A model generated the notes under the pieces. It ran no database searches, was not told where the DNA came from, and saw nothing but the letters and a program-made list of their open reading frames with translations. The position numbers and the translations under genes are program-made. From Candidatus Poribacteria bacterium (GTDB taxonomy: Bacteria > Poribacteria > WGA-4E > WGA-3G): DNA of 64,000 bases. Below are positions 8,871 to 63,518 of this stretch, piece after piece. Positions within the stretch are counted from its first letter, which is position 1. Every line of letters starts with the position of its first letter. The stretch spans positions 288,001 to 352,000 of the forward strand of contig CAXXUA010000015.1 in assembly GCA_963663765.2 (NCBI GenBank). The letters run 5' to 3'.

Positions 8871-9776
8871 ATGAGTCAACACTATGACAATGTCACCAAA
8901 TATGTAACTACTGAATATACTGAACCTTTTGCTGGACTCATTCTTGGTTATAAAGATGTAAAAGTATTAGAAAATTTACCAACTGAACATGTTACACTCA
9001 AATCGCGAGAGACAGATTGTACAATAAAGGTTGAATTTCCAGATCACACAGCCATACTTCATAATGAAGTTCAGGCTTACGATAGTCAGGAACCTATGCC
9101 TTTCCGTATTGCGGGTTATAATGGATTTCTCATCAGAGAATATCAGCTAAATGTCTATTCAAGTGTTCTTTACCTACATCCGCAAGCAGGTAAAAATGAC
9201 CCAGGATTCTATAAATACAGTAGGTATGGTTGTGAATATAAACTAAAGTATCAAGTAATACGATTAATTGATATAGATGGACAGTCAATTTTAGAAGCAA
9301 AAGTTCCAGGTTTATTGCCATTAACACCATTAATGAAACCCCCATCAGGAGTGAATCCGGATCGTTGGTTGGAGACTTGTGTTGATGCAACATTTACCGC
9401 AAGAATAGACTCAGAGAATAGACAGTTGCTATTAGGAGCTTTAGGTATCTTTTGTGGTTTAGTATATGATGCGCAATTGATAAGACATATTTTACCGGAG
9501 GGCATTATGCAAGAAAATCCTTTTATCCAGGAAATACTAAAGGAAGCAAGAGAAGATGCTATGGCGAGTGGTATAGAACGCGGGCAAAAAAAATGTGCAA
9601 TTGACTTAATTTTGGATATGTTAATTGAGCAATTTCCTCATGATGATGAAATTAATGAAATAATACCAACGCTTGAGGAAATCGATGAATTGGAAACACT
9701 GAAACAGATACATCGTACAGTACCTAAAATAAGGAGTATGGAAGAATTCAAAAATATTCTTCTACAAGAGTATTAG
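8871..9776 (+). CDS. Rpn-like PD-(D/E)xK nuclease / putative transposase
   Basis: RETD...LHNEVQ core, MPFRIAGY, GLLPLTPLM and the C-terminal ERG-type helical tail typical of the family. Confidence 0.75.
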   Translation: MSQHYDNVTKYVTTEYTEPFAGLILGYKDVKVLENLPTEHVTLKSRETDCTIKVEFPDHTAILHNEVQAYDSQEPMPFRIAGYNGFLIREYQLNVYSSVLYLHPQAGKNDPGFYKYSRYGCEYKLKYQVIRLIDIDGQSILEAKVPGLLPLTPLMKPPSGVNPDRWLETCVDATFTARIDSENRQLLLGALGIFCGLVYDAQLIRHILPEGIMQENPFIQEILKEAREDAMASGIERGQKKCAIDLILDMLIEQFPHDDEINEIIPTLEEIDELETLKQIHRTVPKIRSMEEFKNILLQEY

Positions 9777-9993: not shown

Positions 9994-10266
9994 ATGCAAG
10001 AAAATCCTTTTATCCAGGAAATACTAAAGGAAGCAAGAGAAGATGCTATGGCGAGTGGTTTAGAACGCGGTTTAGAACGCGGTCAGAAAAAGTGTGCAAT
10101 TGACCTAATATTAGATATGTTAAACGAACAATTTCCAGACGATGAAGTTCATGAGTTGGAACCAGCGCTTGAGGAAATTGATGAATTGGATAAATTAAAG
10201 CGGTTGCATCGCAGAGTGTCAAAGGTGCGAAGTTATAAGGAATTCAAACAAATACTTGAAAATTAG
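9994..10266 (+). CDS. Stand-alone copy of the C-terminal module of the Rpn-like gene (RpnS-like)
   Basis: Begins MQENPFIQEILKEAREDAMASG, identical to the internal segment starting at ATG 9507, then diverges. Confidence 0.7.
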   Translation: MQENPFIQEILKEAREDAMASGLERGLERGQKKCAIDLILDMLNEQFPDDEVHELEPALEEIDELDKLKRLHRRVSKVRSYKEFKQILEN

Positions 10267-11196: not shown

Positions 11197-11240
11197 AAGT
11201 AAATACCTTTCACACTAACTATTTCAACGGTCTAATCCAA

Positions 11241-11278
11241 AAAAAAATAATCCTCATTTGCACGATGCGAATGAGGAT
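11241..11278. terminator. Intrinsic terminator hairpin between convergent genes
   Basis: ATCCTCATTTGCA-cga-TGCGAATGAGGAT (11250-11278) with an A-run on the left, i.e. a U-tract on the minus strand. Confidence 0.7.
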
Positions 11279-11345
11279 ATATAATATTATAGTAAATACT
11301 GATTTTAGATTCTTTTTAAAAAGAATAACAACAAACTAAAACTAT

Positions 11346-11684
11346 TTATTCTTCAAATAGTTGTGCTGTAAATCGTGGTTTTTTATCTACTTCTTCAACA
11401 GCTTCAATTGTGCTAATCAATGTTTCTATTTTGACCTTGTCTTTGTCAACCATGAGTACGACTTTGTTGTCTGAGTGTGAAACACTTAATACCTCAGTAA
11501 CGCCTGTCACCTTTTTGAGTGCATCCTGCACTTTTCCAGTACACACGCTTCAGACCATACCATTTACAGATAGACTTACTTCCTCAACCGATGCGTTTTT
11601 TGTGTCTTCTTTCTGTTGGTTCGCACAACCTATAACGATAAATACCATGAATAAACAGAATAATGACTTATTTAATATTTTCAT
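11346..11684 (-). CDS. Lipoprotein with heavy-metal-associated (HMA) domain, probable selenoprotein (GMV-U-SVC)
   Basis: ATG 11684 with GAGG RBS; lipobox IVIGC; in-frame TGA 11552-11550 at the first Cys of GMxCxxC; frame continues to 11346; downstream hairpin. Confidence 0.85.
11518..11532 (-). promoter_or_regulatory. Putative SECIS hairpin
   Basis: AGTGCA-gga-TGCACT, starting 17 nt after the UGA. Confidence 0.7.
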
Positions 11685-11728
11685 GACTTCCTCTTATTGA
11701 ATATACTTTGTAATCTATAGAAAAGATG

Positions 11729-11750
11729 AAGGGCGAGTTTCCTCGCCCTT
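11729..11750 (-). terminator. Hairpin just after the stop of the upstream HMA gene (terminator or REP-like)
   Basis: AAGGGCGAG-tttc-CTCGCCCTT. Confidence 0.5.
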
Positions 11751-11758
11751 ACAAGTCG

Positions 11759-12145
11759 TTAGTTAACGAGAGATGCTGTGAAGCGAGGATCTGCATCATC
11801 AATAGTCTTAATCAGAGCATCGTTTGTAATTTTACCCTTTTCAACTTTAACGACGACTTTCTTTGTTTGTCTGGAAACACTGAGTACCTCTACACCCGTG
11901 ACCTTTTTAAGCGCGGACCGCACTATACCAGGACACGATCCTCACGTCATGCCCTCAACATTAAAGGTCACTTCCTGATAGGTAGCTTTCTTAGGAGTCG
12001 AAACCGAGGTTTCACTCATCGCTTTTTCTCCTGTCGTAGACATAGCAGTTTCTTCAGCCATTTCTGTCTGTTGTCCGACCATGCCACAGCCTATCACGAA
12101 TGTAAAGGCAAACAGTGTAATCAGCGATAATCTTGCAATATACAT
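11759..12145 (-). CDS. Lipoprotein with HMA domain, probable selenoprotein (GMT-U-GSC)
   Basis: Lipobox FVIGC; in-frame TGA 11944-11942 in VEGMT*GSCPGIVRSALKKVTGV; frame open to TAA at 11759; paralog of 11346-11684. Confidence 0.85.
11910..11924 (-). promoter_or_regulatory. Putative SECIS hairpin
   Basis: AGTGCG-gtc-CGCGCT, starting 17 nt after the UGA, the same offset as in the paralog. Confidence 0.65.
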
Positions 12146-12246
12146 TGTTTTACCTCCTTAATTATATACAATACTATATTATCATATACTTAAGTTAGTT
12201 GTCAAGAAAAAAACAATTGGTATTTATGAGAAATAGGGTGAATGTA

Positions 12247-13008
12247 TTAATTGGATTTTTCTCTATGTGCATCAAGGAAAGGAAATACCTTTTGTAGTCT
12301 TTCAAGTTGTTTTTGTATAGCTGCTGCCCGTTCAAATTGTAGCAGGACGGCTGCGTTGTTACGTCTGGTAACAAGATTTTGCTGAACTTTTTCATATTCA
12401 CCATCAAGTAGATTGATAATGTTCATTATCATCTCTCTATAGAGTTCGCGTGTAATAAGTGCAGCACATGGTGCATAACAACGTTTCATGTCGAATTGTA
12501 GACAAGCGCGGTAGTCCTCTTGAGGGGTAATGGTTCCTTGACAGGTTCTAACCATAAAGATGCGTTGTAGTACATCTATTGCTTCATCAGTCCATTTACG
12601 ACTTGAAAGTGGACCGAAGTATCTTGCTTTATCTGATTGAATTTTTGGTACTCTTTCAAGTCGCGGAAAATCTTCAGCGACATTGATACGAATATACCAA
12701 GTTTGTGTACCATACTTTAAAGCAGAATTATAGGAGGGTTGATGTTGCTTGATGAGACGAGATTCTAAGAAGAGGGCTTCCTGTTCTGATTGGCAAATCT
12801 GATACTGTATAGTAGTCGTCCATCTTATCAGTCGTTTGATTTTTGACCGTCGGTTTTTGACTTTATGAATGTATGAACGTACTCGCTTATGTAGACATTT
12901 TGCTTTGCCGATATATAGAATTTTTCCTGTTGATCCGTAAAAGAAGTAGACACCTGGTACTGAAGGGATGTCTTCTACCATATCTTTCGTTAACATTATG
13001 TTTCCCAA
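12247..13008 (-). CDS. GIY-YIG nuclease resembling the UvrC N-terminal half (Cho-like)
   Basis: PGVYFF...ILYIGKAKCLHKRVRSY, Cys cluster and UVR-like coil (FERAAAI); no UvrC C-terminal half. Confidence 0.85.
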   Translation of the reverse strand: MGNIMLTKDMVEDIPSVPGVYFFYGSTGKILYIGKAKCLHKRVRSYIHKVKNRRSKIKRLIRWTTTIQYQICQSEQEALFLESRLIKQHQPSYNSALKYGTQTWYIRINVAEDFPRLERVPKIQSDKARYFGPLSSRKWTDEAIDVLQRIFMVRTCQGTITPQEDYRACLQFDMKRCYAPCAALITRELYREMIMNIINLLDGEYEKVQQNLVTRRNNAAVLLQFERAAAIQKQLERLQKVFPFLDAHREKSN

Positions 13009-14227: not shown

Positions 14228-15541
14228 ATGTCAAAACCGAACATCGTTGTTTATCTTTCTGATGATCATGGTTGGGAATATCTCGGTTGCTACGGAAATA
14301 CACACATCCAAACCCCACATTTGGATGGTATTGCTGAGGAAGGTTTACGTTTTACGCATGCGTTCACCCCGACACCGACTTGTGCCCCTTCCCGTTCTAC
14401 ACTTTATACTGGACTGTATCCAGCGCGGCATGGAGCTATGGGGAATCATACGGAATGTCACCCATCACTTGAAACATTACCAAAAATGTTAAGAAAACTT
14501 GGATATCGTGTAGCAATTGCAGGTAAGACCCATGTGAGACCTGAGTCGCTTTTTGATTTTGAATATGTCGGTGGATTCCTACCGAAAAACCCAGATCATC
14601 AAAGGAAATATCGTAGAGAAGGACTTGATTTAATTCCAGTTGAACGTTTTCTTGCAGACCATCGTCATGAGAACCCCGAACAACCAGTCTGCTTGATTCT
14701 TGGTGACAGCAATCCGCATGTCACATGGGAACCGAACAAAATCTACGATCACGAAGTTTTACCCCTTCCCCCATATATTGGTGATACTCCAGTTGCGCGA
14801 AAGGCACTTGCCAACTATTATCAGGACATAACGACAATGGATTCTCGTATAGGTGAAGTAGACAAGATGTTGGAAGATCAGGGTTATGCTGATAACACGT
14901 TATTTATCTATACAACTGACCATGGATCCGAGTGGCCGCATTGTAAATGGACATTGTATGACACAGGTATTCGTGTGCCGTTCATTGCACGGTGGTGTGG
15001 AGTAATACCTGCTGCAACTGTTACAGATGCGATGATTTCCCATGTTGACTTTCTACCAACGTTGATTGATGTTGCTGGTGGTGAACCGTCATCGGATTTG
15101 GATGGTATGAGTATTCAAGACGTTTTATGTGGTAAAAAATCATCGTTTCGTGATAAAATATACGGAACGCATACCAGAGATGGTAATATGAATGTATTTC
15201 CGCAACGGTGTGTTCGAGATAACAATTACAAATACATATTGAACTTAAATCCCGAAAATGTTTGGACGACCCATTTTACAGAGGTTGAGGGGATTCCAGA
15301 AAGTCATGCAGAAGTGTGGAACAGTTGGGTTGAAAAGGCAAAAAACCACCCTAATTCTGCAGAACTTGTATATTTAACACAACACCACCCTGTTGAGGAA
15401 CTGTATGATGTGTTAGCAGATCCTTTCGAATTCAATAATATAGCATTTGATGCAGCATATAGTCACATACTTGAAGAGATGCGTGAGTATGTTTGCAGAT
15501 GGATGCAATCACAAGGAGATAAAGGAAAACCAGAAGAATGA
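14228..15541 (+). CDS. Sulfatase (formylglycine-dependent, Cys-type)
   Basis: KPNIVVYLSDD, CAPSR (CxPxR), GKTH and TTDHG motifs. Confidence 0.93.
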   Translation: MSKPNIVVYLSDDHGWEYLGCYGNTHIQTPHLDGIAEEGLRFTHAFTPTPTCAPSRSTLYTGLYPARHGAMGNHTECHPSLETLPKMLRKLGYRVAIAGKTHVRPESLFDFEYVGGFLPKNPDHQRKYRREGLDLIPVERFLADHRHENPEQPVCLILGDSNPHVTWEPNKIYDHEVLPLPPYIGDTPVARKALANYYQDITTMDSRIGEVDKMLEDQGYADNTLFIYTTDHGSEWPHCKWTLYDTGIRVPFIARWCGVIPAATVTDAMISHVDFLPTLIDVAGGEPSSDLDGMSIQDVLCGKKSSFRDKIYGTHTRDGNMNVFPQRCVRDNNYKYILNLNPENVWTTHFTEVEGIPESHAEVWNSWVEKAKNHPNSAELVYLTQHHPVEELYDVLADPFEFNNIAFDAAYSHILEEMREYVCRWMQSQGDKGKPEE

Positions 15542-16146
15542 AGTTAAAAAGAAAAAACTATATCGCTTATAGTATATTGATTGTGAGTACGGTAGTGTGT
15601 CTTTCATGTTTGGATTCAGTTGATATTATGATAGATGATGTAACCACCGAAACGACGGTTACACAACCCGATCCGTTGCCTGCTGGTCAAGGTTTGGCGC
15701 CTGGTACAACAGCACCTGATTTTTCGCTACCCGATGCTAGTAATAATACAGTATCACTTTCCGGTTATTTGGATAAAATAGTAGTTATTCAGTTTTTTTC
15801 GACTGCATTGTGACCCAACTGTATAAACCAACTCAGTGAGTTGGATGGTGGTTATCAAGGCATTTTAGATGCGGGTGCAGATGAACTATTTGCTATAAGT
15901 GGTGATACAGTGTTTGGTCTAAATAGGGAATTAGGACATTTATCATTATCTTACCCAGTGCTTTCGGATTCAGATTTTTCGGTTGTTGACACATATAATG
16001 TGCGTGATGAGAGCAATCCAAATCAGGCAAATCCGACTGCATTTATTGTTGATGCAGATGGAGTTATCCAGTGGAAAGACTCTGGTCAAAGGTTTGGTCA
16101 TCGGACTACATCAACACAGATTATTAATGCGTTGAATGGATTGTAA
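15538..16146 (+). CDS. AhpC/TSA (peroxiredoxin-like) lipoprotein, probable selenoprotein (U-P-N-C)
   Basis: ORFs 15538-15813 and 15841-16146 are in one frame, separated only by TGA 15811-15813 (FFSTAL*PNCINQL). APDFSLPD and PTAFIVDADGVI are thioredoxin-fold motifs. Confidence 0.87.
15828..15844 (+). promoter_or_regulatory. Putative SECIS hairpin
   Basis: CCAACTC-agt-GAGTTGG, starting 14 nt after the UGA. Confidence 0.7.
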
Positions 16147-28421: not shown

Positions 28422-30141
28422 CCTACACTCCGCAGTTGTTTAATCAGATTTTAAGTATTTATGTTATACTCTTTATATCTTTATATTAGGAGTATAACAT
28501 CATCACTCAATCTACTTTTACAACACAACGTTTAGATCACCTCGGCATAGTAGCTGGTGTATGTGATCGTATTGACTTGATAAACACTATTGATACTTGT
28601 ATTTCCCCAACGAAACGGAAAGTTTCAGTGGGTGAATCTGTTGTTGCTATGATCTTGAATGCTTTAGGCTTTGTCTCACGCCCACTCTACTTGACACCTG
28701 AGTTTTTTTCAAATAAACCGGTGGATCTATTGATACGCCCTCATCTCTGTGCTGCCGATTTCACGGACGATTGTCTTGGGCGTGCTTTAGATACACTTTA
28801 TGAAAATGGTGTTACCGAACTTTTTGCGACAGTTGCTTCTAAAGCATTATCAACTTATGAGATTGACCATCGTTTTGTTCATCTGGATAGCACCACGTTT
28901 AGTTTTCAGGGGAACTATGATACCGAAACAGTTGATGAACACGCTATTCACATTACCCACGGGTATAGTCGGGATCAGCGTCCGGATCTCAAACAAGTGG
29001 TAGTTCAACTTCTCTGTTCTTATCGGTCTCAGTTCCCTGTATGGTTCGAAGCACTTGATGGAAATCAGTCTGATAAAACAAGTTTTCCCAACACGATCCG
29101 AGAATATTTGTCTCAACTGCGTGGCAGTGATGCCCCTTATTTTGTAGCGGATAGTGCGCTTTATACAGCACAAAACATTGCGAAGCTGCGTGATGTGCGT
29201 TTTATTACGCGTGTGCCGGAAACACTCAAAGCTGTCAAAGAACTCTACCAAACTATTTCGACTGAAGATATGCAGCCAGCATCTCTTGATGGATATAGTT
29301 ATCTATCAGTAGATAGCACCTATGCGGATGTTCCACAAAGGTGGTTAGTTGTTTATTCACAAGCTGCGTATCATCGTGAAGTGGCAACTTTAGTAAAAAA
29401 GATTGCCAAAGCACAGACAGCCGCACAAACATCACTCAATCGTTTACAAAATAAAACGTATGAGACCGATACAGCTGCGGCATCTGCGGCAACAGTCCTT
29501 GCCAAGTCATGGAAATATCATAAACTTCGTTTCTCCATTATTTCTGTTCCACATTACACTACATCGGGACGCCCCAAAAAGACAGCTAAACCGACACATT
29601 TTCGTTATCGGGTTGAAGGTGAAGTTATTGATGATATAGAAACGATTGAAAAACTCAAACGCAGCAAAGGCCGATTTGTCTTAGCTACCAATGAACTTGA
29701 TACAACTTTACTTGACGATGCGACTATCCTTGAAGCATATAAAGCACAGAACGTGTCTGTAGAACGCGGTTTTCGGTTTTTGAAAGACCCCTTATTCTTT
29801 GCCGATAGTCTATATCTTGAAAAACCCCAGCGGATTATGGCATTACTGATGGTGATGGGACTTTCTTTACTTGTTTACGCTCTTGCCGAACGATGGGTTC
29901 GGCAAGAGCTAAAAAAACAAGAACAAACAATACCTAACCAAGTTGGTAAACCCACGCAAAAACCAACACTCAGGCGTATTTTTCAAATGTTTGAAGGCGT
30001 TGATGTATTATTGATAGAACAAAACGAACATATACAACGGTCTATTGTAAATTTAAATGAAATACACACACAAATCATCAACATTTTAGGCATAGAAGTA
30101 AAAAATGTCTATTTTCCAGATCCATAACTGCGGAGTGTAGG
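28422..30141 (+). mobile_element. IS1634-family insertion sequence
   Basis: Perfect 16-bp TIRs CCTACACTCCGCAGTT / AACTGCGGAGTGTAGG; 6-bp TSD ATTAAG (28416-28421, 30142-30147). Confidence 0.92.
28499..30127 (+). CDS. IS1634-family DDE transposase
   Basis: LDHLGIVAG (upstream of the TTG at 28577), HLDSTT, GYSRDQRPDLKQ, VADSALY and VERGFRFLKDP motifs. Start position uncertain. Confidence 0.9.
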   Translation: MITQSTFTTQRLDHLGIVAGVCDRIDLINTIDTCISPTKRKVSVGESVVAMILNALGFVSRPLYLTPEFFSNKPVDLLIRPHLCAADFTDDCLGRALDTLYENGVTELFATVASKALSTYEIDHRFVHLDSTTFSFQGNYDTETVDEHAIHITHGYSRDQRPDLKQVVVQLLCSYRSQFPVWFEALDGNQSDKTSFPNTIREYLSQLRGSDAPYFVADSALYTAQNIAKLRDVRFITRVPETLKAVKELYQTISTEDMQPASLDGYSYLSVDSTYADVPQRWLVVYSQAAYHREVATLVKKIAKAQTAAQTSLNRLQNKTYETDTAAASAATVLAKSWKYHKLRFSIISVPHYTTSGRPKKTAKPTHFRYRVEGEVIDDIETIEKLKRSKGRFVLATNELDTTLLDDATILEAYKAQNVSVERGFRFLKDPLFFADSLYLEKPQRIMALLMVMGLSLLVYALAERWVRQELKKQEQTIPNQVGKPTQKPTLRRIFQMFEGVDVLLIEQNEHIQRSIVNLNEIHTQIINILGIEVKNVYFPDP

Positions 30142-48990: not shown

Positions 48991-49080
48991 TACCAAGTAT
49001 GATTAGAGTGTATCAAACAAAAAATAGTCTTCAGTATGTGAAATTGAGTTTAAAAAGAGATTAATTTGGAGAACAATAAT

Positions 49081-50268
49081 ATGAAATCGTATAGAGAGAT
49101 CGTAGAGGAGGCAAAAACTGAAATCCCAGAGGTGACTGTTGCTGATGTGAAAGTTGAGCAGGAGCAAGGGAGTGACTTTGTGCTTCTGGATGTACGTGAT
49201 GAGGATGAATATCGGGCTGGATATATTCCAGATGCTGTTCACGTTACCCGCGGAATGTTGGAATTTTCTGTTGAGAATTATATTCCGGACAGGGATAAAA
49301 AGGTTGTGGTTTATTGTGCTGCAGGACTTCGTTCACTGCTTGCAGCAAAATCGCTTCGTGAAATGGGGTATACAGATACTGTATCTATGGCAGGTGGTTA
49401 TCGTGATTGGACAGCAGCTGGGTTACCTACAGCACAAGATAAACCGATGTCACATGAACAACTTGACAGATATAGCAGACATTTTATGTTAACCGAAGTC
49501 GGTGAACAAGGTCAGGCAAAGTTGCTGGATGCAAGGGTTTTACTTGTCGGTGCTGGTGGGTTAGGGTCTCCTGCAGGTGTTTACCTTGGAGCAGCTGGAA
49601 TTGGTCACATGGGTGTTATAGACTCTGATGTGGTGGAGTTAAGCAATCTACAACGCCAGATTCTACACCGCACTGAGGCGGTCGGTACACCAAAGGTTCA
49701 ATCTGCAACAACGACCATAAAATCACTAAATCCGGATGTTGAGATTACACCGTATAACCTTCGTTTGACCGCAGACAATGTTGAAGAGATCTTTTCTGAA
49801 TATGACCTGATTGTTGATGGGTGTGATAACTTTGCTACACGTTTCCTTGTGAATGATGCAGCAGTGTTTATGAATAAACCGATAGTACATGGCAGTATTT
49901 TTCAGTTTGAGGGACAGGTTACTTTGTTTAAACCGAATGAAGGTCCGTGTTACCGATGCATGTATCCGACTCCGCCGCCACCCGGTTTGGTTCCAAGCTG
50001 AAGTGAAGCAGGTGTCCTGGGCGTGCTCCCAGGTGTAATTGGTGTGATGATGGCAACGGAAGCGATTAAGTATATCATCGGTATTGGTGAACCGCTTATT
50101 GGTAGACTTATACTTTATGAAGCACTCAGTATGACCTATCGCGAGATGAAAGTTCCTCGTGATGAGAATTGCCCGATCTGTGGTGAGAATCCGAGTATAA
50201 CAAAACTCATAGACGATTATGATGCGGCTGCGGAGAATCCTGAAACTTTTGCACCCGCTGCTGATTGA
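49081..50268 (+). CDS. moeB: Rhodanese-MoeB/ThiF (E1-like) fusion, probable selenoprotein
   Basis: Rhodanese YCAAGLRS; RYSRH, VGAGGLGSP, SNLQRQ, PCYRC. In-frame TGA 49999-50001 in LVPS*SEAGVLGVLPG (family pattern PSCxEAGVLG); frame continues through CPIC to 50268. Confidence 0.88.
50016..50033 (+). promoter_or_regulatory. Putative SECIS hairpin
   Basis: CCTGGG-cgtgct-CCCAGG, starting 14 nt after the UGA. Confidence 0.65.
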
Positions 50269-50297
50269 TAATAGGTGAATTTCAGTTTAGGAACTTA

Positions 50298-51395
50298 ATG
50301 TCAAAAAATTTAAGTACCCAAGAACCGGAAATACTTAGCTTTTCCGACATCCCGATTGAACCCTTTCCGGACCGAAGCACACGCTGGTTGTTCGAAGACA
50401 AAGAGTACGTCCGGGGCCTGGTAGACATCCTTGCAAGCGAATTGGCGGCGTGTATTGATTTCAGTCGCTTATCGCAAATTAACAGGAGTTTTATACCCGA
50501 CACGTTACGCGAGCAAGAGTCTGATATGGTGTTTACCGCGCCGTTTCAGACTGAATCTGGAACAGATGAGCTGTTAATTTATATCCTCATTGAACATCAA
50601 TCCACGGTTGACCCGATAATGGGTTTCCGGGTGCTGTTTTACATGATGCAGATTTGGGATTTCCAACGTAGAGGATGGGAGTCTGAGAATGTGCCCAAAA
50701 GTCAGTGGCGTTTCCGACCAATCCTCCCAATTGTGTATTATACAGGCGAAAAGCGATGGAGTAACCCACTTACACTTGATGCGATAATAGATATGCCGGA
50801 TGTGCTCGCGAGGTTTGTTCCAAAATTTGATATGCTGTTTCTCAGTGTTAATGATACCGATGTAACGCACCTAAAGGAAACTGACCAGCCATTAGGGTGG
50901 TTGTTAACAGTTCTTCAAAAGGAAAATGCGGACGAGGAAACGCTAATTGATGCATTGCTTGATACGTTTTCACACTTCGACACACTGGAAGAGGAATACG
51001 CACCACAGCGGCGTAAAGCGATGATCTATCTCATCTTGTTCATACTACATCGCCGCCCTCCTGAAGAACACAAAAATTTGATTACACTCATTGATCAGAG
51101 AACACACGATATGGAGGTAGAAACCATGGCACAATCAATCATTGAAATTACCAAAGAAGAAGGTAGAGAAGAAGGAAGAGAAGAAGGTAGAGAAGAAGGA
51201 AGAGAAGAAGGTAGAACACAAGCAAAACGGGAGTCAATCATAAAACTGATACAATCCCGATTTGATGTTCTCCCTGAGGCTGTTGCCACTGAGATTGATT
51301 CGATACAGAGTCTTTCCCACCTCGATTCGATCTTTGATAAAGCATTGACCGCAGAAACAATTGATGAAATTGGGTTGCAAAACAACGACAAGTAA
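50298..51395 (+). CDS. Rpn/YhgA-like recombination-promoting nuclease (PD-(D/E)xK)
   Basis: SFIPDTLREQESDMVF, YILIEHQS and ILPIVYYTG motifs; REEG repeats; internal GGAGG+ATG at 51113/51126. Confidence 0.9.
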   Translation: MSKNLSTQEPEILSFSDIPIEPFPDRSTRWLFEDKEYVRGLVDILASELAACIDFSRLSQINRSFIPDTLREQESDMVFTAPFQTESGTDELLIYILIEHQSTVDPIMGFRVLFYMMQIWDFQRRGWESENVPKSQWRFRPILPIVYYTGEKRWSNPLTLDAIIDMPDVLARFVPKFDMLFLSVNDTDVTHLKETDQPLGWLLTVLQKENADEETLIDALLDTFSHFDTLEEEYAPQRRKAMIYLILFILHRRPPEEHKNLITLIDQRTHDMEVETMAQSIIEITKEEGREEGREEGREEGREEGRTQAKRESIIKLIQSRFDVLPEAVATEIDSIQSLSHLDSIFDKALTAETIDEIGLQNNDK

Positions 51396-52612: not shown

Positions 52613-55288
52613 ATGCCGAAAAAACCTATTAACCATTATGAACATACCGACAAACTACCCAATAACCCGACCCAAGAACTGAGCGGTTTTGCTGAAAACG
52701 ATGACTTTGCACCGACACGATACCCGCGCGATGTTGCACTTGACCCGCAATTAGTTTGGAAAGGCAAAGACCAACAGAACGATGCCGATCTTGAGGTGCC
52801 AGCAGTCCCTATCTACATTTAGGAACATATTCAACCGCAAGCTATTAGTGAAGTACTTCGCGCACAACAACAGAAAGAATCGGAACAAATCGGAACGCTT
52901 TTTGAAGGATTCAACGACCTTGACTTTGAGCAGAAAATTGAGTTTTACCAACACGAACAGAACTGGCATAACCGCTTTATCCTTGGCGATTCACTTGCTG
53001 TGATGAACTCTCTCGCCGAAAAAGAGGGATTTAAAAATAGTGTGCAAACTATCTTTTTTGACCCGCCTTATGGTATCAAATTTAGCAGTAATTGGCAGGT
53101 TAGCACCCGAAAACGTGAAGTCAGCGATACAAAAGCAGAAGACGTTACGCCACAACCCGAACAAATTAAAGCATTTCGGGATACATGGAAAAACGGCATC
53201 AACTCTTACCTCACCTATTTACGTGATCGACTTACAATTGCCCGTGAATTGCTCGCGGATAGTGGTAGTATCTTTATCCAAATTAGTGATGAGAACGTTC
53301 ATTTTGTTAGGTGCTTGTTAGATGAAGTGTTCGGAGATACCAATTTTGTTAACACAATCACCTGGACTCGAGGTGGAATGACTTCTTCAGAAGGGTTAGC
53401 TGCAATCTCTGATTATCTGTTATGGTATGCAAAAGACAAAGAACAAATGAAGTACCGTCCTCTTTGGATAAAGTGGGATGAACACACACCAGACCCACTC
53501 TTAAGACATCACACACAAGTTGAATTTCCAGATGGAACACGGCGCAGAATGACGCAAGCAGAAAAAGAAAATCCAGCGTTATTGCCTCAGGGAATAAAGC
53601 GATTTCGAGAATCTCAAGCAACATCACAGACTGCTGGTAGTGCCACCTTTGAGTATGAATTTGAAGGTAATATTTTTATACCTCCCCGTGGAAGAGGTTG
53701 GGCATCAAACCGTGAAGGACTAAACCTTCTTGCTAAGCAGGGAAGACTTGTCAAATCAGGACAGAGAATCAATTACATTCGATACGCTGGCGATTTTCCG
53801 GGACGTGCTATGACCAACATGTGGACAGATACCTCACGTGGAGGTTCTGGAAAAACCTACATTGTAGAGACAAACCCGACAGTTATCCAAAGGTGCATGC
53901 TCATGACAACAGATCCAGGGGACTTAGTCCTCGATCCAACTTGTGGCAGCGGCACAACCGCTTATGTCGCAGAACAGTGGGGAAGACGTTGGATAACAGT
54001 AGATACTTCAAAGGTAGCACTTGCGTTGGCACGTACCCGCCTCATGTCTGCCAAATATCCTTACTATCGCCTTCAAGATGCAGACGACATCAAGAAGGGA
54101 TTTGCCTATAAAACTGCACCGTATGTTAGTCTTTCAGATATGGCAAATAACACAGAGATTGACGACATCCATGCAGAATACGCAGAGAAATTAGATCCGC
54201 TCCGTGCCGAAATGAATCGCCTTCTTGAACAAAATTGGGAAGAGTGGGAGGTACCAACTGAAACCGATACGGAATGGGATACGGAATTTCAGGAACTTCA
54301 TCGTAAATGGCTTGTCCTCAAACGCGAACGACAATTAGCGATGGATGCCTCCACTGCAAAACGCGCCAAAAGTGAGACACTTTACGATCAACCTTATGTG
54401 GATAGAAAACGGGTTCGCGTCACAGGTCCATTCACGGTAGAGAGTTTATCCCCGAATTTTGCTCTTGAGCAAACCGATGCAGAATCCCAAACGTCAATAT
54501 CTTCTGAGAGTGTACAAGAGTATCACCAACATATCATAGAACATCTCAGAACAGCGGGCATACAAAGTGGTTTCAAAGATCAAGGTATCAATTTTGACTG
54601 GATAGAAGAATATCCAGGCGAATGGGTTCATGCTGAAGGCATGTGGGTTGACAAAGAGGAAAAACAACATCACATTGCTATCAGCATTGGTCCACAGTAT
54701 GATACGGTGGGTAAACAGTGGATACGTGAAGCAGCGAAGGAGGCTGTCCGAAAAATCGCAGAATATGACCTACTTATTGTGGCGGGAATCACATTTGAAT
54801 GTTATACTGCTAATGAGGTATCACGAATTGGCCAATTGCCGATACTGCCAGTCAAAATTAGTCCTGAGTTAATGGTGCGTGAACTCAAAAACACGGGTGA
54901 GGGCAATCTGTTTATGGTGTTCGGCGAACCGGATGTGGACATTGTAGAGAATAAAGATGGCACAATCTCTGTTAAACTCTTGGGTGTGGATGTATACGAT
55001 CCTGTGAAGGGGTTACTCCGTTCGGAAACGCCAGAGGACATCGCGTGTTGGTTCATTGATACCGCTTACAACGGCGAGGCGTTTATCGTGCGGCATGCAT
55101 ATTTTACGGGTGAAAACGAACCTTACAAGCAGCTGCAAAAAGCACTCAAAGCAGAAATTAACGAGGAGGCGTGGGTGGCACTATATCGGACAGAAAGCAT
55201 CCCATTTACCAAGCCTGAGTCTGGTAAAATTGCAGTGAAGGTTATCAATCATTATGGTGACGAGGTGATGAAAGAGTATAAGGTTTAG
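52613..55288 (+). pseudogene. Type III-like DNA methyltransferase (Mod) with in-frame TAG at 52820-52822
   Basis: 52613-52822 and 53000-55288 are in one frame (VPIYI*EHIQPQ...WHNRFILGDSL); DPPY precedes DPTCGSGTT (beta-class order). Confidence 0.85.
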
Positions 55289-55316
55289 ACAAATAGCGTC
55301 AACACGGAGAGAGAAA

Positions 55317-56678
55317 ATGATTACACACATACGAATGAAAAACTTCAAGTCGTGGAAAGATAGCGGTGAAGTTCAACTTGCGCCGTTGACAGGCTTTTTC
55401 GGTACAAATAGTTCTGGGAAGAGTAGTTTGTTGCAAATGCTGCTACTGCTTAAGCAGACAACGGAGCAGGAGAATACCGAAGAAGTTATCTTCTTTGGAA
55501 ACAACGGCTCTTATGTCAATTTAGGTAATTTCCATGAAGTGATTCACGGTCATAGTCAAGAAAATCATCTTGAGTTGGAGTTTGGATATAAACTTCACAA
55601 GACTTATAGTCTTCGATGGAATGTAACGGATAAAGAACCGTGGGAATCAAGAATAGATCGGTTTGCATTTAATACAGTGATTTCTAAAGCAAATGGGAAA
55701 GTAGATGTAAAGAACTTTTCATATGCTGATTCTTCCGGAAGTTGGAAAATTGCCTGGTACATTAAGGAAATAAAGAGATCGGTATATGGCGGTCCCTTAT
55801 TCATTAACGAAGATAGTTTAGGATACGGACAAGTGACAAACTGCTACGGTACTCCAACAACAAAGGATATAGGCTCGTATCAAAGACCAGAGAAAGAATA
55901 TATAAAATTTTTCTCACAACTTTTTGAAAAATTGTTTTTGAATCTATATTATCTTGGACCAACTCGTGTGGATCCACGACGAGACTATAATTGGCAAGGT
56001 ATGCATCCTGAGCATTCTGATCGATGGGGAGATAAAACAATTGACGCGCTTCTCTCTGCGCGTGTGCGAAATTTGAAAACCTCTCATAAGAAAGAAGATG
56101 TTCCAATTGAGGGAAGAATTTCAGATTGGTTACAAAAGATGGACTTAGCCCATTCGTTCTCGCTTAATTGGATAGAAGCACAGGGCAGCAAAACCTATGA
56201 AGTCCGTATCCAAAAAACTCAATCAAGTCCACTTGTTACATTAGTTGATATGGGTTACGGTTTATCTCAATTCTTACCAGTGTTAGTCCTTTGCTACTAT
56301 GCACCAGAAGGTTCAACCTTAATTTTGGAACAACCCGGTATTCACCTTCATCCAATGGTTCAATCCCAACTTGCGGATCTGCTGATAGAGGTTGTCAACG
56401 AAAGGAACCTGCAGATTTTGGTGGAAAGCCACAGTGAACATCTGTTAACTCGTTTACAAAGACGAATCGTCGAAGAAAAGATTGCTGCAGATCAGACTGC
56501 ATTCTATTTTTGCCGTAACAATGATGGTGCTTCCACTATTGAAAAATTAGATGTAGACGAAGCGTCTGGGGATATCAAGAACTGGCCAGAAAACTTTTTC
56601 GGTGATGTGATGGGTGATATGTTTGCGATGACAGACAAACAGGTCGAAAGCATAGCAGAAAAGAGAACGGAGGGTTAA
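55317..56678 (+). CDS. ABC-type (AAA_21-like) ATPase with DUF3696-like C-terminus, copy 1
   Basis: GTNSSGKS, GYGLSQ, LILEQPGIHLHP, ESHSEH and NWPENFF motifs. Confidence 0.88.
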   Translation: MITHIRMKNFKSWKDSGEVQLAPLTGFFGTNSSGKSSLLQMLLLLKQTTEQENTEEVIFFGNNGSYVNLGNFHEVIHGHSQENHLELEFGYKLHKTYSLRWNVTDKEPWESRIDRFAFNTVISKANGKVDVKNFSYADSSGSWKIAWYIKEIKRSVYGGPLFINEDSLGYGQVTNCYGTPTTKDIGSYQRPEKEYIKFFSQLFEKLFLNLYYLGPTRVDPRRDYNWQGMHPEHSDRWGDKTIDALLSARVRNLKTSHKKEDVPIEGRISDWLQKMDLAHSFSLNWIEAQGSKTYEVRIQKTQSSPLVTLVDMGYGLSQFLPVLVLCYYAPEGSTLILEQPGIHLHPMVQSQLADLLIEVVNERNLQILVESHSEHLLTRLQRRIVEEKIAADQTAFYFCRNNDGASTIEKLDVDEASGDIKNWPENFFGDVMGDMFAMTDKQVESIAEKRTEG

Positions 56679-57196
56679 TGGACGCAGTTGTGATTGATAC
56701 GAACGTTTTAGTAGTCGCAAATGGCAAGGCTGCTGCGCCGCAGGCATCCGATAAATGCATCAAACTCTGTCGCGCAAAGCTTGCAGCAATACTTAGAAGT
56801 TCCGAGAAGATATTACTTGATGACAAAAAGCGAATAATTCGAGAGTACAGAAGGAACCTAAATGACAAAGGACGTGGACACGGAGATCGGTTTTGGCTGG
56901 AATTAAAAAGAAGATTTTATAATCCTAAAAGTTATCCTGATACGGTTGTCACGGTTGAAATTACCACGTTAGCAGGAAACGGCACTGAATTTGAGGAATT
57001 TCCTAATGATGACGCGGCACTAAGCGATTTTCATAAAAAAGATAAAAAATTTGTTGCTGTTGCCATTGTTTACCAACGCGACTTTGAAGATGAAGCACCT
57101 ATCCTAAAAGCAGAAGATAGGGGTTGGGATGAATTTAAAACCGCCCTGGCTGCTCATCGTGTTTACGTTCATGCTATCTGTGAGGACAACACCTAA
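56678..57196 (+). CDS. PIN-domain protein, copy 1
   Basis: VVIDTNVLVVAN, EY, DKKFVAVA and EDRGW acidic positions; start overlaps the ATPase stop. Confidence 0.75.
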   Translation: MDAVVIDTNVLVVANGKAAAPQASDKCIKLCRAKLAAILRSSEKILLDDKKRIIREYRRNLNDKGRGHGDRFWLELKRRFYNPKSYPDTVVTVEITTLAGNGTEFEEFPNDDAALSDFHKKDKKFVAVAIVYQRDFEDEAPILKAEDRGWDEFKTALAAHRVYVHAICEDNT

Positions 57197-57333
57197 AGAC
57201 CTTTTGATATAAGATAACGTTGGAACACTGTTATGCAGAGACCTATAAAAAATCTTGCACCGTGTGCTAAATGTGCGTCTATCCTACTTAATTGTCTGAA
57301 TCGCGAATTATACCGATCATGAGGAAAGGAAAA

Positions 57334-58656
57334 ATGATTACACATATACGAATGAAAAACTTCAAGTCGTGGAAAGATAGCGGTGAGGTTCAACTTGCCC
57401 CGTTGACGGGCTTTTTCGGGACAAATAGTTCTGGGAAGAGCAGTCTGTTGCAGATGCTGTTATTGCTTAAGCAGACAACGGAGCAGGAGGATGCGGAAGA
57501 AGTTATCTTCTTCGGTAATGAAAATTCCCTTGTCAATCTTGGTTATTTCCATGAAGTTATTCATGGGCATCAAGAGGATGAAGAACTTGAGTTAGAGTTT
57601 GGGTGTAAATTCCCAGAATCAATGACAATCAGAATCACCCAATATAGGCTGGAGCCAGATGAAGTTAAATTTGATTCTTTCAATTTTGAGACTACTATCA
57701 AGAAATATGGTAATTCACAGGATGTCAATCGTATTTGTTACGATATCGGAGGAAAGGGAATTAATAAAATAAAGTTAGAAGGTAACGAAATTTCCTATTG
57801 TGGCAAACGCCTCTTCACGGGTACTTATAAAAACTGCTATAGTATAGAAGAGACAACGCAAGCTTTTCCAGGTTCAAACGAATCATTTTACTTGCTTTCG
57901 TCTAAATTTGAGGAGCTTTTTTCACATGTTTTTTATCTGGGACCAACCCGCAAACATCCACAACGCTACTATCATTGGGAGGGTGATTTTCCTGAAACTC
58001 CCGGACAGTGGGGTGGTCAGACAATTGATGCTCTTCTCTCCGCTCGTATAGATCAGCGAACGACCCCTTATAAAGCAAAAAATGTCCCAATTGAGGAACG
58101 AATCTCAGCATGGTTGCAAAAAATGGAATTAGCGTACGCCTTTGAATTTGCACGGAGCGGTCCACGGGATAACAAAAACTATGAATTCCGAATCCAAAGG
58201 GGGCCGAAAAGTATTAAAGTGACATTGGCAGACATAGGTTATGGAGTTGCACAATTTCTTCCTGTTCTGGTTCTGAGTTATTATGTTCCGATCGGATCCA
58301 CGCTGATCCTTGAAGAACCTGGGACTCATCTTCATCCCAAAGCACAAGCTGACATCGCAGATCTCTTGATAGAGGTTGTCAATGAACGGAAACTACAGAT
58401 TTTAGTAGAAAGCCATAGTGAACACCTGTTAACTCGCCTGCAACGAAGAATTGCAGAAGAAAAGATTAGCAGTGAACAAACTGCCCTCTATTTTTGTCGG
58501 AACAATGAAGGCGTTTCTAATATTGAACGTTTAGAAATGGATGAATTTGGTAACATAGAAAACTGGCCAGAAAACTTTTTTGGCAATGAGATGGGAGATC
58601 TGTTCGCAATGACTGATGCGCAAAGGGAACGTCAAAAGAGTGCGGAGGGTGAATGA
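57334..58656 (+). CDS. ABC-type ATPase with DUF3696-like C-terminus, copy 2
   Basis: First ~50 aa identical to copy 1; LILEEPGTHLHP and ESHSEH motifs. Confidence 0.88.
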   Translation: MITHIRMKNFKSWKDSGEVQLAPLTGFFGTNSSGKSSLLQMLLLLKQTTEQEDAEEVIFFGNENSLVNLGYFHEVIHGHQEDEELELEFGCKFPESMTIRITQYRLEPDEVKFDSFNFETTIKKYGNSQDVNRICYDIGGKGINKIKLEGNEISYCGKRLFTGTYKNCYSIEETTQAFPGSNESFYLLSSKFEELFSHVFYLGPTRKHPQRYYHWEGDFPETPGQWGGQTIDALLSARIDQRTTPYKAKNVPIEERISAWLQKMELAYAFEFARSGPRDNKNYEFRIQRGPKSIKVTLADIGYGVAQFLPVLVLSYYVPIGSTLILEEPGTHLHPKAQADIADLLIEVVNERKLQILVESHSEHLLTRLQRRIAEEKISSEQTALYFCRNNEGVSNIERLEMDEFGNIENWPENFFGNEMGDLFAMTDAQRERQKSAEGE

Positions 58657-58855: not shown

Positions 58856-60170
58856 CAGGGTTATTTAGTTTTAAAAACTCTCAGTTATCAAGTTAACTGC
58901 GAGTTTAGGTTTTGAAGCTAAGTATTTTATCTCATCTGCTATACGCGTTATCCCAGCAAATCGCAACACTGCTAATGCTGTATTTCGCAAAGCAGCCATG
59001 ATTTGTGGAATAGCACCGCATCGGACAGACGATGCGTCTTCTCCAAGTTGTGTATCACGCATCCAATGCGACTTGTTCTCTATTGACCAATGCCCACGGC
59101 GTAGCTCAAGTAAACGTTGGGCAGAAGTTTCTTCGGGTGTCAGACTTGTAATACCATAATGGATTTTGGTTTTTTCTTCTCCTGTTTTCGTATTTTTGTA
59201 AGTATAACGATATTGGAACACTTGTGCTATACCTGGCCAATCCAGATATGCGTTGAGACTTGTGCTTGCTTTCAAACACCTTGTCTCTATTCTACCATGT
59301 GATTTTTCAGAAGTCTCGTGAGTGTAAATAGGGGCTCCCAATTTAGGATGTGGTGTGTTATCAGAAAGCGTGTCTGGAACGTCTTGAAAGAGTTTTTGGA
59401 TCTCATCGTAAAGGTCCGGTTGGTTCTTTTTGACAGGGAGCACATAGTCTCCATTACCCTCTATGATGGCGTGGCAGAAAGGTCGCTGTGTCAAAAGTGC
59501 GTCTGTTGTGATGACTTTACCACTCACATCAAAGTTTTTGAGGATCTCTGTTGAGATCGGTATTTCGTTGGTTTTATCACTGACACCTTTTTGTGTAAGT
59601 GTGACGCCTAACTCATGAGACACAACAGAGAGTAAATGGCTTATTGTCGCACCACTTTTCTTACTGGCACGCATCGTTTTACCGTCTATAGCGACTGCGT
59701 CAAGACAACCTTCTAAATCAGGTCGACTTTGACAAACGTCTTCTACCCAGTCTGTAAATGTCTTTTCAACAGCATCAGCATCTAAATCTTTTAGAACATT
59801 ATGTATTGTTGCGGGACAAGGTGTTTTCTTGTGTGTAAAACCGAGTGTTCTTGCGAGGTCTGGTTGGGTTCGGGCCCAAGTTGCGATGGATGTATATCCT
59901 TTATGTCCAGTCATAAAACCAATAATGTTAAGTCCGATGATTGATTTCAATGGGTGTCGTTTTCCTTTATTGTTGCGCGGGTCTTGGATTTCTGCTAATC
60001 TATCTAACAAGTGTCGAGAGTTTTTCTCTGGCATTTTTCACCTCAAAGGTAAGATTTTTTAGGTGAAGTATAGCAGATATAGCGCGATAAATCACGCTAT
60101 ATCTGCATATCCAAAAATATTAACGATTGTGATAAAAAACAACCAAAACTCCTAAAACTAAATAACCCTG
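58856..60170 (-). mobile_element. ISAs1-family insertion sequence
   Basis: Perfect 18-bp TIRs CAGGGTTATTTAGTTTTA / TAAAACTAAATAACCCTG; 9-bp TSD AGGAATTGG (58847-58855, 60171-60179). Confidence 0.95.
58871..60034 (-). CDS. ISAs1-family transposase
   Basis: DPR, AIDGKT, KTNEI, TTDAL, VKKNQ, HGRIETR and HWSIENKSHW motifs. Confidence 0.95.
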   Translation of the reverse strand: MPEKNSRHLLDRLAEIQDPRNNKGKRHPLKSIIGLNIIGFMTGHKGYTSIATWARTQPDLARTLGFTHKKTPCPATIHNVLKDLDADAVEKTFTDWVEDVCQSRPDLEGCLDAVAIDGKTMRASKKSGATISHLLSVVSHELGVTLTQKGVSDKTNEIPISTEILKNFDVSGKVITTDALLTQRPFCHAIIEGNGDYVLPVKKNQPDLYDEIQKLFQDVPDTLSDNTPHPKLGAPIYTHETSEKSHGRIETRCLKASTSLNAYLDWPGIAQVFQYRYTYKNTKTGEEKTKIHYGITSLTPEETSAQRLLELRRGHWSIENKSHWMRDTQLGEDASSVRCGAIPQIMAALRNTALAVLRFAGITRIADEIKYLASKPKLAVNLITESF

Positions 60171-63500: not shown

Positions 63501-63518
63501 AACCTAAATGCGGCGTAA
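60510..63518 (+). CDS. Type III restriction-like helicase-endonuclease (Res)
   Basis: MATGSGKT, NDEAHH, MLSEGWD, EQVVGRGLRR; C-terminal YVPDFI...LILEVSG nuclease motif. Confidence 0.9.
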   Translation: MAKVTIENPVINSPFEKPQRHFVFTQRGITEDIEEGRRQSEYFIPMPKPKKQSQDAQMKLLPDPEVREANMFINRVRAQVTAWRNNGYPGVTPTTRRLLEYWNKPENEPRLFFCQREAVETAIYLNECENKNRSDSFHKQLLTANNEANPDLYRVAFKMATGSGKTVVMGMLIVYHTLNKRVNSRSERYADAFLIVTPGVTIRDRLQVLLPENPENDYQKMNLLPHGDYDTLCQAKIAITNYHAFQTRKKEKLSKVSEQVLGKESANNFRETPDEMVVRVCRSLGRKKNIIVMNDEAHHCFHRKNDTESELTQDNPRLWISGLDAVKAKIGIKTVYDLSATPFFLSGSGYSTTTQSGKKLKEGVLFPWVVSDFALIDAIESGIAKVPRVPVADDTMASDPIYRRLWDIVGTKLKGITTDGEPQLPQELETALQSLYTNYEKAYDLWQKNPHGLTPPVMIVVCNNTRVSKLVYDWIAGWEKVTTDGEKVIEKGNLPIFNNEENGEWSEKLSTLLIDSKQLESGEALKGEFKKASKTQIEQFMHKMNVEKVTDEDLLREVLNTVGKKDKLGEKIKCVVSVSMLSEGWDARRVTHILGVRAFSTQLLCEQVVGRGLRRSTYDVEKTTIQINENEINLETFPPEYAEVYGVPFSFIPATGSGKAIQPNPVTEVKALPERKAKCEITFPRLVGYHPCLPSEKLDANFTEDSRYELSTAEIPSRIEIEAITGSVIEVESPYLKKFRLQETEFYLAKVLMDNYLCDTEKDAKWWLFPELLRITRRWMKDCVTYKDNTHPQFFHIGEIARKAAFRIHMGILNAEKQSENEDFKNNGSEKTFIPIFSQSSRLKGRTGSTTDVLFETSRPTWETKPDKCHISHVVADTESWEQKTAQALEQMDEVVTYAKNHNLGFTIPCINHNGESRQYVPDFITRILSGESGSTDGNVNLILEVSGMPREDKVQKVNTIKNMWLPAVNGSSEFGKWDFLEITDPWNIQNTIRQYLNLNAA

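Follow-up and report, generated by a model that had tools for sequence, protein, structure and literature searches.

This analysis concerns a pair of adjacent genes, here called A and B, found on the minus strand of a 64,000-nucleotide stretch of DNA from a Candidatus Poribacteria bacterium (GenBank assembly GCA_963663765.2, contig CAXXUA010000015.1, positions 288,001 to 352,000), which is referred to as the window and numbered from its first letter. Each gene carries one in-frame TGA, placed at the first cysteine of a GMxCxxC motif, and when this codon is read through each would encode a lipoprotein with a heavy-metal-associated (HMA) domain. As argued below, A and B are very probably genuine Poribacteria selenoprotein genes, whose products would incorporate selenocysteine (Sec, U), be exported as lipoproteins and display a tethered, MerP-like site for soft metals. 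The features of the two genes are the following:

Gene A, 12145..11759, minus strand: 128 amino acids (aa) with the TGA read as U68, motif GMTUGSCP, stop codon TAA.
Sec codon (TGA) of gene A, 11944-11942, minus strand: codon 68, kept in 29/29 A orthologs.
Lipobox V-I-G-C of A, 12086..12097, minus strand: residues 17-20.
Hairpin of A, 11924-11910, minus strand: AGUGCG-GUC-CGCGCU, 17 nt after the UGA.
Gene B, 11684..11346, minus strand: 112 aa with the TGA read as U45, motif GMVUSVCT.
Sec codon (TGA) of gene B, 11552-11550, minus strand: codon 45, kept in 29/29 B orthologs.
Lipobox V-I-G-C of B, 11625..11636, minus strand: residues 17-20.
Hairpin of B, 11532-11518, minus strand: AGUGCA-GGA-UGCACU, 17 nt after the UGA.

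Reading and annotation of genes A and B

A first-pass annotation of this DNA, made from the sequence alone, had proposed that both paralogs possess a lipobox and a TGA exactly at the first Cys of GMxCxxC, and that standard open reading frame (ORF) calling shortens them. The read-through translations bear out all three statements. Under genetic code table 11 gene A is divided into two ORFs, 11942..12145 (67 aa) and 11759..11923 (54 aa), and gene B likewise into 11550..11684 (44 aa) and 11346..11546 (66 aa); the G+C content of the window is about 0.39. The same disruption is visible among homologs in the protein library, where two entries (P0006, P0132) terminate at GMT as gene-caller output, three (P0009, P0011, P0036) begin at a GTG internal to the hairpin, seven codons past the TGA, and six (P0003-P0005, P0007, P0022, P0033) show W at the Sec position. 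The latter is most likely an annotation artefact of gene calling with code 4, in which TGA is translated as Trp, and as such conceals selenoproteins. The three entries that begin late are multi-HMA proteins, starting with M-Q-[D/G]-A-L and continuing with one to three Cys-type HMA domains, and gene callers have probably cut off part of a Sec-type first domain in them.

Protein fold and family

The Pfam HMA profile (PF00403) spans the TGA in both genes, with an E-value of 1.6e-11 and 44.9 bits in A (residues 60-117) and of 1e-07 and 32.7 bits in B, both scores lying above the gathering cut-off of 24.8 bits. In an AlphaFold model of A, built on a 65-row alignment, residues 56-126 form a beta-alpha-beta-beta-alpha-beta domain with block values of the predicted local distance difference test (pLDDT) of 91-96, the successive elements being a strand at 56-64, a helix at 71-80, strands at 85-91 and 96-102, a helix at 108-118 and a strand at 123-126, with the metal loop placed after strand 1. 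Residues 21-50 are modeled as a disordered linker (pLDDT <50), which is preceded by the signal helix. The best structural match of this model in the PDB is 1osd_A, the oxidised MerP of Cupriavidus metallidurans, with a template modeling (TM) score of 0.92 by target, a root-mean-square deviation of 1.2 A and 35% identity. In total, 41 PDB structural matches were obtained at E up to 0.001, and among the matches listed all are HMA domains, 1osd_A being followed by those of copper ATPases and chaperones. The sequence search agrees with this assignment, its strongest PDB matches being 7si3_A (3.8e-18) and 7xuk_A (2.3e-17).

At the level of named families, A and B match three NCBIfam models below their cut-offs. 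The MerP model TIGR02052, which is the best NCBIfam match of A, gave 57.3 bits for A and 33.4 bits for B (cut-off 92.55), NF041115, described as a UxxU metal-binding (seleno)protein, gave 54.8 and 42.1 bits (cut-off 95), and NF045683, a MerT/CopZ fusion-like selenoprotein, gave 44.7 and 30.2 bits (cut-off 375), with only its CopZ-like end being matched. In bacterial lipoproteins the N-terminal hydrophobic stretch is closed by a lipobox of consensus [LVI][ASTVI][GAS]C. When this consensus is used, a putative lipoprotein signal composed of a hydrophobic stretch and a lipobox is recognised in both A and B.

Conservation of the UGA codon

Related loci were collected by a scan of one genome per species with alignment A2 as query, which yielded 80 loci, 32 of which were examined at the TGA codon. 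The best 28 of the 80 (L001-L028) all belong to Candidatus Poribacteria and, together with the window, constitute a set of 29 genomes and 58 A and B genes; the gene at L001, for instance, is 94% identical to A. A TGA is present at the matched codon in 28/28 of the Poribacteria loci, both paralogs are found in tandem in every one of the 29 genomes, and the in-frame TGA, the UxxC motif and a [G/A]-C following a hydrophobic stretch are each observed in 58/58 genes, C20 being nearly invariant in alignment A4. The nucleotide sequence on either side of the codon is under purifying selection. The pairwise ratio of nonsynonymous to synonymous substitutions (dN/dS) amounts to 0.33 for the part of gene A that precedes the TGA and to 0.24 for the part that follows it, the corresponding values for gene B being 0.26 and 0.24, and values below 0.5 are found in 93-99% of pairs, from which it follows that both halves are translated in one frame.

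Outside this set the position is occupied by cysteine. The first-pass annotation had suggested an alignment with Cys-containing homologs as a check, and in such an alignment U68 and U45 correspond to Cys in the four printed loci from other phyla (Scalindua L029, L031 and L033; Heimdallarchaeota L030) as well as in 14/14 further Cys-type loci, and to the first Cys of MerP and Cu-ATPase chains of the PDB and of the Cys-type domains of P0009 and P0011. Two of the features employed in PMC13188914 for the recognition of selenoproteins are found in A and B, namely a Sec/Cys pair and TGA-containing orthologs in other organisms whose coding sequence is conserved before as well as after the codon.

A conserved hairpin downstream of the UGA

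A 6-bp hairpin starting 17 nt downstream of each TGA, with pairing kept despite differing codons, had also been put forward in the first-pass annotation and interpreted as a selenocysteine insertion sequence (SECIS), and it was found exactly as described. For its analysis, segments of 60 nt spanning the TGA were aligned without gaps as alignment A3, 57 in all, of which 29 come from A and 28 from B (the B gene of L016 being left out) and 51 are distinct. The consensus comprises a 17-nt spacer, the 5' strand A-G-U-G-C-[A/G], a loop G-[G/U]-[A/C] and the 3' strand [U/C]-G-C-A-C-U. Standard pairs occupy 98.7% of the hairpin cells, compared with 4-55% if the 3' strand is displaced by one to three columns, and RNAalifold independently predicts exactly these six pairs and nothing more. 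At the pair formed by columns 32 and 36 the distinct rows contain A-U 44 times, G-C four times, G-U twice and an unpaired combination once, which describes a compensatory path that also alters the protein (Q-D to R-S). In gene A of the window, GCG stands in place of the usual GCA, so that a U-A pair becomes U-G. The apical part of the hairpin presumably resembles the SECIS hairpin of E. coli fdhF.

A stronger argument for the hairpin than covariation is the freezing of synonymous sites, which is a constraint at the RNA level. Across the 58 genes, Val at position +7 is encoded by GTG in 58/58 cases, Gln at +8 by CAG in 51/51, Asp at +9 by GAT in 35/35 and Ala at +10 by GCA in 57/58, while the very next codon, Leu at +11, varies freely (CTT 24, CTC 21, CTG 7, CTA 6) and other invariant Val columns make use of three to four codons each. 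An amino-acid constraint as the cause of the conservation of the hairpin was rejected on these grounds, since the hairpin codons are frozen synonymously and Leu+11 and the other Val columns are not.

The geometry of the hairpin also agrees with the published model of the bacterial SECIS (bSECIS), which provides for a loop of 3-9 nt, an upper stem of 4-16 bp, a distance of 16-37 nt between UGA and loop, and a G among the first two loop bases, after which G or U is usual (PMC13188914). The hairpins of A and B have a 3-nt loop, a 6-bp stem and a loop start 23 nt past the UGA, and their apical loops are GGA (35), GUC (16) and GGC (6), the first base being G in 57/57 sequences. Together with the synonymous-site constraint, this geometry sustains the reading of the hairpin as a SECIS. 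In 14 Cys-type HMA genes, taken from 14 of the 52 non-Poribacteria loci, no such hairpin was found in the same register (0/14), with at most four of the six pairs being formed.

Evidence for selenocysteine use in the genome and lineage

Two further candidate selenoprotein genes are located in the window, both on the plus strand:

Peroxiredoxin-like (Prx-like; AhpC/TSA) selenoprotein candidate, 15538..16146, plus strand: TGA at 15811-15813, motif A-L-U-P-N-C, hairpin at 15828-15844.
Rhodanese-ThiF/MoeB selenoprotein candidate, 49066..50268, plus strand: TGA at 49999-50001, motif P-S-U-S-E-A-G-V-L-G.

The Prx-like gene has a signal-like N-terminus and its TGA is found at the CxxC-type active-site position, with the Pfam profile covered on both sides. 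This TGA is kept in 21/21 Poribacteria loci where the gene was found by tblastn, and it is followed by a conserved 7-bp hairpin (GCAACUC, a 3-nt loop, GAGUUGC) distinct from that of A and B. In the MoeB-like gene, which under table 11 stops at 311 aa, read-through extends the ThiF match, otherwise confined to profile positions 1-175, to positions 1-237 of 238. Here the TGA sits at the active-site Cys position and, in a single-sequence fold, only a weak hairpin follows. Both MoeB and Prx-like proteins are among the listed selenoprotein families (PMC2398784). A six-frame scan of the window revealed no in-frame TGA inside recognisable genes beyond these two and A and B, and TGA serves as an ordinary stop for five other window ORFs, four of them with a Pfam match.

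A lack of Sec machinery had been named in the first-pass annotation as a refuting condition, and it is countered indirectly by these two genes and by evidence from the lineage. For Ca_Poribacteria_WGA3G two SelA, one SelB and one SelD are given in supplement file 2 of PMC5649159, a study which also reports that SelA and SelB co-occur in most bins of sponge symbionts, and Sec-type group 4 hydrogenases have been reported from Poribacteria (PMC13582414). A tRNA-Sec was not found in the sequences at hand, with ARAGORN detecting no tRNA in the window and only a tRNA-Gln in 3/28 loci, these stretches representing a small part of each genome.

Proposed mechanism

Taking these results together, selenocysteine is almost certainly the residue specified by the UGA codons of A and B at the metal site, and the route from gene to tethered protein may be pictured as follows. 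The ribosome would meet the UGA, and the 6-bp hairpin 17 nt downstream, with its apical G-[G/U]-N loop, would act as a bacterial SECIS in the manner general for bacteria. This element would bring in SelB with Sec-tRNA(Sec), so that Sec is inserted and termination does not take place, according to the pathway described in PMC13188914. Judging from the signal sequence, the precursor would then be exported as a lipoprotein, lipidated on Cys20 and freed of its signal peptide. The mature protein would consist of a MerP-like HMA domain held at the extracytoplasmic side of the membrane by a flexible linker of about 15-35 residues. By homology with MerP, CopZ and the domains of ATPases, the tethered domain is expected to bind a soft metal ion, to which the U-x-x-C loop would offer a selenolate and a thiolate ligand. 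On the same basis the most likely ligands of the site would be Cu(I) and Hg(II), with Cd or Ag also possible. The use of Sec could be explained in two ways: tighter binding of soft metals would be expected than with the first Cys, and the site may stay reactive in an oxidising compartment, since a selenenyl-sulfide would reopen more easily than the disulfide seen in oxidised MerP.

Several observations weigh against this interpretation. With respect to the RNA element, four of the six stem pairs show either no change at all or changes in just one of the two strands, and true covariation is therefore confined to a single pair. The bSECIS model further asks for a minimum free energy no higher than -7.5 kcal/mol (PMC13188914), which the hairpin on its own, at -4.8 to -6.3 kcal/mol, falls short of. 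The 51 nt after the UGA do reach -7.5 kcal/mol or lower in 54/57 sequences (median -16.8), but the lower stems that supply this energy are not conserved in alignment A3; lower stems appearing in the minimum free energy folds of the window were dropped from the model for the reason that their columns do not stay complementary in the 57 sequences. Single-sequence folds are only marginally better than those of shuffled sequences (z of -1.8 for A and -2.6 for B), and it is therefore conservation, and not energy, that argues for the hairpin. In Rfam, no match to a SECIS family was obtained even at E up to 10, and no family reached its gathering score anywhere in the window; the only matches at E up to 10 within 11300-12200, Termite-leu (over the terminator-like hairpin between A and B) and SNORD110, were discarded as chance matches. 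As regards the decoding machinery, selA, selB, selC and selD are absent from the 64-kb window and from the 28 loci of about 20 kb, and no sel family was detected in 39 other window ORFs scanned. Finally, no P-type ATPase, MerT, MerA, MerR or multicopper oxidase is found among the conserved neighbours, nor a MerT, MerA or MerR family in the 39 other window ORFs scanned, so that the putative metal binding is argued from homology, and in the accessible parts of the literature searched no experimental data were found on any Sec-HMA protein.

Alternative explanations

The division of both genes into split ORFs under table 11, and the lack of sel genes in the window, could be taken to mean that the TGAs are true stops, belonging to pseudogenes, to assembly errors or to pairs of separate small ORFs. 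This explanation has practically no chance of being correct, given that the same in-frame TGA recurs in all 58 genes from 29 genomes of independent assemblies, that purifying selection acts on either side of it, and that an HMA fold needs strand 1, encoded upstream of the TGA, as well as the remainder, encoded downstream. It is also highly improbable that the UGA is decoded as a residue other than Sec, either as Cys with the aid of the hairpin, by an allo-tRNA of the tRNA(ReC) type acting with SelB and a SECIS, or as Trp or Gly under a deviant code. A tRNA(ReC) that decodes UGA when a SECIS lies downstream has indeed been described (PMC13582414), and the library homologs mentioned above do show W at this site. 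Nevertheless, a tryptophan at a metal-ligand position would be chemically senseless and is best explained by gene calling with code 4, whereas a deviant code is at odds with the five window ORFs that end in TGA and with the restriction of in-frame TGAs to four recognisable genes, in all of which they fall at Cys-type active sites.

An explanation of a different nature, which accepts A and B as real selenoproteins, is that the U-x-x-C on the HMA scaffold forms a redox centre and not a metal carrier, either as a thiol/selenol oxidoreductase, as an enzyme that reduces oxyanions of metals or metalloids, or as a partner of the Prx-like selenoprotein. We consider it unlikely, although it accounts for several observations: most UxxC selenoproteins in review tables are redox proteins (PMC13188914, PMC2398784), the Prx-like Sec gene is a conserved neighbour whose two halves were found in 21 and 20 of 29 loci, no metal transporter is encoded nearby as far as the scanned window ORFs and the conserved neighbours are concerned, and the closest structural match is MerP in its oxidised, disulfide form. 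On the other hand, all close relatives of solved structure bind metals, the fold and the GMxCxxC loop are likewise those of metal binders, and the Prx-like gene is encoded on the opposite strand at a distance of about 4 kb, with three unrelated genes in between.

Comparison with known systems

MerP proteins (TIGR02052; PDB 1osd, 1afi) have the same fold and the same GMTCxxC loop, including the CxxCP seen in gene A, and are extracytoplasmic, as A and B are predicted to be. By definition, MerP is encoded in a mer operon together with merT, merA and merR. A and B differ in having Sec in place of the first Cys, in forming a tandem pair, in carrying a putative lipoprotein signal and tether where MerP is soluble in the periplasm, and in the absence of merR, merT and merA from the window and from the conserved neighbours. 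The chaperones CopZ and Atx1 and the N-terminal HMA domains of Cu(I) P-type ATPases share domain and motif with A and B, but these are cytoplasmic, contain only Cys and work with a partner ATPase, none of which is encoded near A and B.

HMA proteins with Sec, a rare kind of selenoprotein, have been predicted before. A 'Mercuric transport protein MerP' and a UxxC cation ATPase appear in the Global Ocean Sampling (GOS) selenoproteome (PMC2398784), and a UxxU metal-binding protein and MerT-type selenoproteins are already tabled (PMC13188914, PMC9312934). Like A and B, these predicted proteins carry Sec within the CxxC of an HMA-type metal site and were called from a UGA/Cys pair and a SECIS. By contrast, A and B score below the cut-offs of NF041115 and NF045683, their motif is UxxC and not UxxU, and no MerT or ATPase domain is attached; in addition, they appear to be lipoprotein-anchored, are duplicated in tandem and are fixed across a phylum of sponge symbionts. 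With the two MerP selenoproteins of GOS the comparison is by description only, and the family may already be listed there or in BSepDB. A further parallel is offered by the SAO system of Haft and Gwadz (SaoX and SaoC variants; bioRxiv 10.1101/2022.07.06.499078), in which lipoprotein signals and Sec/Cys are likewise found and are proposed to provide an extracytoplasmic ligand for heavy metals, although that system involves unrelated folds (ABC substrate-binding and CC-COOH proteins) with CU or CC motifs and belongs to Firmicutes. In the accessible literature, a search for Poribacteria and selenocysteine found nothing on genes A and B, and one for selenoprotein, heavy metal-associated and bacteria found nothing relevant. 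Sec in the CxxC of an HMA domain is known as a prediction, and what sets A and B apart is the predicted lipoprotein tethering, the tandem duplication, the fixation within the phylum and the simple, sharply conserved SECIS.

These properties bear on annotation in the first place, as A and B of Poribacteria are cut in two or called with Trp, a fate shared by at least two further Sec genes in the vicinity, and correction recovers a conserved pair of predicted extracytoplasmic proteins. Being fixed in 29/29 genomes, with a domain of about 70 residues and a simple SECIS at a fixed spacer of 17 nt, the family also constitutes an entry point to the biology of Sec-HMA proteins. It is suited to testing what selenium adds to a CxxC metal site in terms of affinity, exchange rate and resistance to oxidation in the periplasm. 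Moreover, it adds to the evidence for reliance on selenium in sponge symbionts, for which an enrichment of SelA and SelB was reported (PMC5649159).

Genomic neighbourhood

Three additional features, each identified by a match to consensus only, surround or separate the two genes:

Promoter-like TTGACA-16-GATAAT upstream of A, 12178..12205, minus strand: 11/12 matches.
Shine-Dalgarno sequence AAGGAGG of A, 12153-12159, minus strand: strong by sequence.
Terminator-like hairpin with T-run between A and B, 11729..11750, minus strand: 9 pairs, 6 of them G-C.

Conservation of the gene order was counted over the window and the 28 Poribacteria loci. In 25/29 of these, a GIY-YIG domain protein (253 aa; in the window at 12247-13008, minus strand) is encoded directly upstream of A on the same strand. 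The promoter-like site separates this gene from A, and a functional link is not evident. The conserved neighbours on the other strand are, besides the Prx-like gene, a PhyH dioxygenase (27/29) and a sulfatase (22/29), and a GFO/IDH/MocA oxidoreductase and an M48 peptidase are also conserved nearby.

Directly downstream of B, 15/29 loci encode a secreted protein of 400 aa that belongs to no Pfam family and for which a look-up in the ESM Atlas returned only unnamed clusters. In L001 (10482-11927) and L002 (7112 onward) this protein is fused in frame to B as a domain of about 370 aa, without a signal peptide of its own, and in the 13 other loci it is encoded separately. At 11199-11355 the window is about 1 kb shorter than L001, and the 400-aa gene has no copy elsewhere in the window. 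A tentative and rather doubtful idea is that the phylum-wide, strictly Sec-dependent pair of tethered periplasmic HMA proteins represents a new extracytoplasmic system for the capture or hand-off of soft metals (Hg, Cu, Cd or Ag), which would operate without mer or cop partners and maybe together with the 400-aa protein. Should this be the case, metal handling in a major lineage of sponge symbionts would depend on selenium as an obligatory cofactor, and the domain fused to B would represent a new enzyme that either needs metals or delivers them.

Beyond the end of gene B, a 301-aa ORF (8871-9776, plus strand) has no Pfam match, and a 90-aa ORF (9994-10266, plus strand) repeats its C-terminal 90 residues or so with changes, which looks like a partial duplication adjoining the locus. 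At a greater distance, two DDE transposases, a YhgA-like transposase and an N6/N4 DNA methylase are encoded (28577-30127, 50265-51395, 53000-58656, 58871-60034, 60510-63518), together with two AAA_15/AAA_21/DUF3696 ATPases and a ResIII helicase, and these segments look like a mobile and defence island.

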